DNA of 32,004 nucleotides, taken from Escherichia coli. GTDB taxonomy: Bacteria > Pseudomonadota > Gammaproteobacteria > Enterobacterales > Enterobacteriaceae. Location: assembly GCF_003334815.1 (NCBI RefSeq), contig NZ_QOWO01000042.1; one strand, written 5' to 3'. The notes beneath the pieces were generated by a model. The model made no database searches and was not told where the DNA came from. It saw nothing but the letters and a program-made list of their open reading frames with translations. Of the stretch, positions 30,289 through 30,452 are shown piece by piece. Every line of letters starts with the position of its first letter. Positions within the stretch are counted from its first letter, which is position 1. A program made the position numbers and the translations under genes.

Positions 30289-30452
30289 CGGTCGTGTTCT
30301 CCGTAACGAATTATTGATAAGGTGAATATTTTTCTGCGGGCTATTTTACATACTTAACTCCATAGCCGTTAGTTATCCCTTCCTAAAGTAGAAACCAACA
30401 ACAAAGAAGCATAAAATCAACATTTCATTAACCAATGAAGTGTAAGGATGAT

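Follow-up and report, generated by a model that had tools for sequence, protein, structure and literature searches.

Translation start of yigI and a known ArcA operator in the pldA/yigI spacer of Escherichia coli

Translation of Escherichia coli yigI clearly starts at ATG 30453 and gives a protein of 155 residues, as in the curated databases. The conserved DNA just upstream of the gene is a published, already known operator for ArcA, a repressor that responds to oxygen. We hold it highly probable that both parts belong to one account, in which yigI starts at ATG 30453, the ArcA operator lies over the yigI promoter, and phosphorylated ArcA would occlude that promoter when oxygen is limiting. 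The choice of start codon, the difference in Shine-Dalgarno strength, the motif score, and the motif conservation were established in this analysis, while ArcA binding in vivo and ArcA-dependent repression of yigI come from the literature.

All positions refer to the window, the whole 32,004-nucleotide stretch of DNA that was analyzed, which belongs to the E. coli chromosome. A 901-bp query spanning the pldA/yigI site found a match in each of the 5,426 complete E. coli genomes, where pldA, yigI, and rarD are annotated beneath it, and the coordinates used in the original prediction are exact. Window positions convert to K-12 as 4035150 minus the window position. NCBIfam equivalogs name the three genes as phospholipase A, a YigI-type thioesterase, and RarD, in agreement with RefSeq. 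On the minus strand, pldA (29419..30288) encodes outer membrane phospholipase A of 289 amino acids and matches equivalog NF008031 over its full length (596.7 bits; cut-off, 369). On the plus strand, yigI (30453..30920; WP_001277142.1) encodes a medium/long-chain acyl coenzyme A (acyl-CoA) thioesterase and matches equivalog NF008675, of 156 positions, with 255.5 bits (cut-off, 107).

The interval between them is the shared regulatory spacer of divergent pldA and yigI. It had been described beforehand as AT rich and 146 bp long, and this description holds, along with the gene identities: 30289..30434 is 146 bp, with a G+C fraction of 0.356 versus 0.513 in pldA, 0.532 in yigI, and 0.530 in the window. 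Only 0.13% of 146-nucleotide windows across the 32 kb are as poor in G+C. Insertion sequences were noted at the locus in two E. coli strains, OSUCMP42NDM (1308-2923 of its locus) and OkiPb01684. An IS3-family element splits the 5' part of yigI in one E. coli strain, leaving a 139-amino-acid "thioesterase family protein" call, and another strain has an IS1A element inside the stretch covered by the 901-bp query.

Conservation within the spacer, as seen in an alignment of 35 species, is concentrated in the pldA Shine-Dalgarno sequence, positions 30343-30355, an AAAGTRGAAA segment around a -35-like hexamer, and the near-invariant GCATAAAATCAACATTTCATTAAC (30409-30432). The last of these belongs to a strongly conserved block at 30409-30434, combining a -10-like hexamer with the ArcA operator, which the original prediction overlooked. 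On the yigI side, a consensus scan picked out a predicted plus-strand promoter with the -35-like hexamer TAGAAA (30389..30394), inside a conserved block at 30385-30397 with identity 0.82, and the -10-like hexamer TAAAAT (30412..30417). The combination TAGAAA-17-TAAAAT has 9 of 12 consensus matches and is not commoner in the real sequence than in shuffles (1 found versus 0.7 expected). Across the 35 species, the -10-like hexamer reads TAAAAT, TAATAT, TAACAT, or TAGAAT; T1, A2, and T6 are invariant, and variation is confined to internal positions, as expected of a -10. From these hexamers, yigI transcription would start near 30424. The Cappable-seq supplements of Ettwiller 2016 hold no entry or matching coordinates for a yigI transcription start.

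On the pldA side, the Shine-Dalgarno sequence GGAGAA (30297..30302, minus strand) lies 8 nucleotides before the pldA ATG, with column identities of 0.8 to 0.9 in 35 Enterobacteriaceae. The block TTYTACATAYTT at 30343..30355 has a mean identity of 0.86, with flanks near 0.5. Its minus strand reads TATGTARAAT (30343-30352) and holds the only candidate -10 for pldA, TARAAT (30348 to 30343), in which T1, A2, and T6 are conserved, with variation at position 3. No recognizable -35 accompanies this candidate, and the consensus scan returned no minus-strand promoter at threshold. SELEX with the sigma-32 holoenzyme has placed a weak peak (intensity, 3.7) in the yigI/pldA spacer at about K-12 U00096.2 4002730, and RegulonDB lists pldA as an RpoH target (Shimada 2017). 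We located neither a convincing sigma-32 motif, judged by eye, nor a convincing sigma-70 promoter for pldA in the spacer, and the paper on the Yersinia pestis pldA promoter gives no mapped pldA promoter elements.

The reverse complement of the 30409-30434 block resembled an ArcA site, and we therefore rebuilt an ArcA matrix from the 115 boxes that Park 2013 gives in Table S3 (mean score of this training set, 15.8 bits) and scanned the whole window. An ArcA box of 18 bp consists of two TGTTAA-like direct repeats with an 11-bp center-to-center distance, and published cut-offs run from 9 to 15 bits. The top score among 63,974 positions, 18.6 bits, fell on the minus strand at 30417..30434, TGGTTAATGAAATGTTGA. 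The half-sites of this box, a pair of direct repeats with 11-bp spacing, score 7.6 and 8.0 bits, and scores of 15 bits or more occur at just two positions of the window. This operator for anaerobic yigI repression ends one base before ATG 30435 and takes in the final base of the predicted -10 as well as the predicted +1. With a start near 30424, the box would span about -7 to +11. The published fadB box, GTGTTAAAAATATGCAAA (4198-4215, minus strand), gave the rebuilt matrix a positive control from within the window; we observed an overlapping in-phase box of 10.7 bits beside it, at 4209-4226.

The box is also kept in other species. We collected 80 orthologous loci from species-representative genomes, E. 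albertii to Yersinia; pldA lies divergently upstream of yigI in 74 of them, and the yigI start could be placed in 76. An ArcA box scoring 12 bits or more occurs within 170 nucleotides upstream of yigI in 65 of these 76, and 64 of those boxes share the orientation of the one in the window. Elsewhere in the orthologous loci, such boxes turn up at a frequency of 2.45e-5 per position, and thus about 0.008 boxes are expected per locus. Nearer pldA, a second, weak ArcA-like motif, ATCAATAATTCGTTA (30304..30318, minus strand), appears beneath the ArcA ChIP peak in Federowicz 2014 Table S5 (p 6.9e-5), scores only 5.7 bits in the rebuilt matrix, and is poorly conserved; it is probably there by chance. 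Further in-phase half-sites upstream of the box are weak, with TTGTTGG at 30401 reaching 3.8 bits and the intervening position at most 2 bits.

Published data place ArcA at this box and tie it to yigI expression. Federowicz 2014 reported an ArcA ChIP-chip region at U00096.2 4002474-4002970, with a modest signal-to-noise ratio of 4.49, scored as Repression for yigI and Activation for pldA. Beneath the peak, they placed the motif GTTAATGAAATGTTG at 4002741-4002755; with the shift of 1977 to U00096.3, this is window 30418-30432, coinciding with the box found here. Park 2013 placed yigI among the ArcA-dependent operons, with an upstream box that scores 15 bits or more, but saw no ArcA ChIP peak under their conditions. 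In their Table S5, yigI rises from a log2 value of 6.2 in the wild type to 10.1 in the arcA deletion, a 15.6-fold increase (p 5.5e-7). Babujee 2012 found yigI to be one of four genes congruently down under O2 limitation (Dickeya, -2.9; Pectobacterium, -7.4; E. coli, -3.1). [quoted passage not shown]

One mechanism is the most likely. The block at 30409-30434 would be a sigma-70 -10 element overlapped by the ArcA box, so that phosphorylated ArcA bound at 30417-30434 when oxygen is limiting would exclude RNA polymerase. Park 2013 concluded that most ArcA sites overlap sigma-70 elements and repress by occlusion. The outcome would be that yigI is off, together with other fatty acid degradation (beta-oxidation) genes. 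Translation of yigI begins at ATG 30453, behind the Shine-Dalgarno sequence UAAGGA, and yields the thioesterase of 155 amino acids.

The downstream gene rarD is probably shut off with yigI. Park 2013 recorded a 4.1-fold rise of rarD in the arcA deletion, and a scan of 30886-30944 found no plus-strand terminator in the region of the 51-bp yigI-rarD gap; together, these fit partial cotranscription of yigI and rarD. A promoter-like sequence, TTGCCA-16-TATGGT, was also noted within the last part of yigI. In this strain, rarD (30972-31850, plus strand) encodes 292 amino acids, which align to positions 1-292 of the RarD profile (296 positions). K-12 rarD encodes 296 (891 nucleotides). The yigG ArcA box described in the literature, which scores 19.2 bits in K-12, was not found near the 3' end of the window. 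Thus, this strain departs from K-12 in the sequence that follows rarD.

A competing reading holds that the 30409-30434 block is conserved solely as a core promoter, or because some other regulator binds there, with the ArcA match incidental. The spacers of Yersinia, Serratia, Pantoea, and Buttiauxella can no longer be aligned, yet they carry a high-scoring box in the same orientation at a variable distance from the ATG (16.7 to 17.7 bits in Yersinia, 21.1 in Pantoea, and 15.4 to 20.2 in Buttiauxella), which argues against a fortuitous match. The independent ChIP-chip study, which places binding over the motif, and the size of the arcA effect on yigI point the same way. Matches to other regulators are poor: the best FadR-like match in the spacer has 9 mismatches, and the best CRP-like match (30335-30350) has 3 and an unconserved left half. 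What speaks for an incidental match is that the block includes the -10-like hexamer, that its conservation begins at 30409, 8 nucleotides before the box, that Park 2013 had no ChIP signal at yigI, and that the sigma-32 SELEX peak lies in this spacer. Weighing these, we consider an incidental match very unlikely and retain the block as promoter and ArcA operator together.

A wider reading, which we regard as doubtful, is that the one ArcA-bound site in the 164-bp spacer both represses yigI and raises pldA, either directly or through relieved promoter competition. It draws on the Activation score that Federowicz 2014 gave pldA at this peak, but pldA is not listed as ArcA dependent in Park 2013. 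If true, dual control would couple membrane phospholipid turnover to fatty acid catabolism by oxygen supply.

Elsewhere in the window, the scan also returned an ArcA-like box, TTGTTAAATTAGCGTGAA, at 10219-10236 (plus strand; 16.5 bits), with a second box of 13.5 bits 11 bp upstream in phase, making three direct repeats over 10208-10236. They sit in the divergent spacer between ubiD (8669..10162, minus strand) and rfaH (10329..10817, plus strand), both of which are NCBIfam equivalogs. Park 2013 Table S1 has no ArcA ChIP region between yigG and fadB, and this would therefore be an unreported candidate site upstream of a ubiquinone biosynthesis gene.

As had been pointed out, the yigI frame can open at either of two in-frame ATGs: 30435, for a product of 161 amino acids (MKCKDD...), or 30453, for one of 155 (MSAVLTAEQ...). 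The RefSeq/PGAP coding sequence begins at 30453, and K-12 MG1655 b3820, annotated at 4004230..4004697 (468 nucleotides), uses the same ATG. Orthologs agree with the downstream codon. At its position, 74 of the 76 loci, as far as Yersinia, have an ATG with a serine codon (TCT, TCA, TCC, or TCG) directly after it. An in-frame stop interrupts the 18-nucleotide extension in 22, including Salmonella, Citrobacter, Leclercia, and Enterobacter (for example, IK*QES in Salmonella arizonae, TRY*DR in Citrobacter youngae, LRM*RA in Leclercia, and IRM*CL in Enterobacter chuandaensis). No in-frame ATG, GTG, or TTG precedes the next upstream stop in 51 loci, and in the remainder the nearest upstream in-frame start falls at scattered offsets from -3 to -27.

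The first ATG and the five codons after it (30435..30452, plus strand) are thus noncoding 5' leader outside YigI, with neither the open frame, the start codon, nor the residues of MKCKDD conserved across the 76 loci. Mean identity to the window in the 35-species alignment falls from 0.92 at 30409-30434 to 0.41 at 30435-30452 and rises to 0.80 over the first six yigI codons. The original prediction had proposed looking for ortholog conservation through MKCKDD; in both data sets, conservation stops short of it. The family profile gives the same answer: residues 8-161 of the longer form align to positions 3-156 of NF008675, leaving no space for six extra residues.

Ribosome-binding potential also distinguishes the two codons. 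The Shine-Dalgarno sequence UAAGGA at 30443..30448 (plus strand) forms a duplex of -5.9 kcal/mol with the 16S 3' end, and orthologs have a median of -5.2 kcal/mol 5' of the conserved ATG; 13% of the ATGs in the whole window score -5 kcal/mol or better. The 25 nucleotides upstream of ATG 30435 (CATAAAATCAACATTTCATTAACCA) do not contain a single G, and over the 20 nucleotides before this ATG the best pairing with the 16S 3' end is +2.0 kcal/mol, which amounts to none. A canonical Shine-Dalgarno-led start is therefore present at ATG 30453 and absent at ATG 30435. On this point, the original prediction had the reasoning for the first ATG reversed. The purine-rich stretch (AATGAAGTGTAAGGATG) said to precede the first ATG actually starts at ATG 30435 and lies downstream of it, where it precedes the second ATG and supplies its Shine-Dalgarno sequence, which is stronger than the weak GGA that had been proposed.

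The chance that YigI is made wholly or partly as the 161-amino-acid form, by dual initiation or as an N-terminal proteoform specific to Escherichia and Shigella, is slimmer still than that of an incidental ArcA match. ATG 30435 is in frame with no stop in between, and it is kept in E. albertii and in the five RefSeq E. coli strains with variant sequences that we examined, so that trace initiation in Escherichia is conceivable. An identical 61-mer spanning both ATGs occurs in 2,916 RefSeq E. coli genomes; among the variant sequences examined, the variant positions are 30390, 30402, 30409, 30433, and 30451. The A-to-T change at 30451, found in ATCC 25922-type strains, would be a nonconservative Asp-to-Val replacement in the hypothetical extension, which weighs against it. 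So do the loss of the codon in "E. coli E69" (TTG), Citrobacter (TTG in two, ATA, or ACC), and Salmonella (ATA), the stops in many genera, the lack of any anti-Shine-Dalgarno pairing, the leader of only about 11 nucleotides that a transcription start near 30424 would leave, and the absence of the extension from the curated family profile. The N-terminomics supplements of TRAINSPOTTER contain no yigI, b3820, or SAVLTAEQ.

The 161-amino-acid protein is in several GenBank records, namely older Shigella and E. coli 042 entries, as well as in automatic calls, and on at least 1,000 contigs it stands alongside the 155-amino-acid form. The uncertainty about the N terminus raised in the original prediction is thus real as far as public annotation goes, but the curated annotation uses ATG 30453 and the orthologs support it. 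With the longer form in older or automatic records and the shorter one in curated sets, the ambiguity is an annotation artifact that curators have already settled. The triplet at 30435 is an ATG by chance, within the untranslated leader; it abuts the operator edge, lacks a ribosome-binding site, and is unconserved.

The least probable of the alternatives is that the block acts as RNA, through a 5' untranslated hairpin (30420-30429 with 30434-30443) that holds the first AUG and controls translation or stability. The E. coli segment 30405-30480 does fold to -15.6 kcal/mol (z = -2.5), forming a 10-bp stem with the first AUG in its right arm, yet the fold from the predicted transcription start is no better than shuffles (z = +0.25), and RNAalifold finds no consensus structure (0 pairs) in the 35-species alignment. 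Paired cells across the 35 species reach 71% versus 30 to 51% in slid controls; the hairpin was derived from the E. coli row, however, so the unslid register is favored, and shuffles reach 68.1%, barely below the observed 71.1%. Some C-G to U-A double changes occur (7 sequences), but they fall at 2 pairs only, which 479 of 500 shuffles reach, and each of the four innermost pairs is disrupted in between 7 and 19 of the 35 species. A U run facing the purine-rich Shine-Dalgarno region, which pairs through composition, accounts for most of the apparent pairing, and Rfam 15 has no match in or near the spacer at E <= 1. The corresponding inverted repeat, ACATTTCATT-AACC-AATGAAGTGT (30420-30443, plus strand), joins the promoter-proximal ArcA half-box to the first ATG; with no convincing covariation in 35 species, we rejected it as a conserved element.

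The DNA block upstream of yigI is, then, best read as promoter and ArcA operator, and this control region is ordinary, already described, and of little consequence beyond housekeeping. The result confirms the curated YigI of 155 amino acids and marks the 161-amino-acid versions in older Shigella and E. coli records and automatic calls as overextended. It also joins scattered data, namely the motif-only call of Park 2013, the peak of Federowicz 2014, the O2 response of Babujee 2012, and the aerobic induction of Schmidt 2022, into a picture of yigI as a strongly and anciently ArcA-repressed member of the fatty acid degradation genes. That the box persists from Escherichia as far as Yersinia and Pantoea adds a little to this picture but is no discovery.

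Among PaaI/YigI-type hotdog-fold thioesterases (NF008675; PDB structures 3e8p and 3hdu), YigI is a full-length equivalog match whose closest solved relative is 3e8p (E = 2.2e-44). The alignment to 3e8p begins at residue 11 of the 161-amino-acid form and the N termini of homologs vary in length, so structures alone do not fix the yigI start. Overextension of an N terminus by choice of the longest open reading frame is a common gene-calling artifact, and yigI shows its usual marks: an in-frame ATG a few codons upstream without a Shine-Dalgarno sequence, and a long form in older or automatic annotation that is corrected in curated sets. Its one peculiarity is that the spurious ATG directly adjoins a transcription factor operator.

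The closest regulatory parallel is with the ArcA-repressed beta-oxidation promoters (fadE, fadBA, fadH, fadIJ, fadD, fadL, and tesB), which, like the predicted yigI promoter, have direct repeats 11 bp apart over the core promoter. The yigI product acts on acyl-CoAs, as in the fad regulon. Anaerobic repression is strong in both, with the 15.6-fold effect at yigI standing against 17.5-fold for fadE and 27.2-fold for fadBA in the same Park 2013 table. Three features set yigI apart from that regulon: the search of its spacer gave no FadR-like site; Park 2013 lists it as "no ChIP peak, motif only," and it is a direct target only in Federowicz 2014; and the yigI box outscores the fadB box, which reaches 13.1 bits here and 12.4 in the paper.
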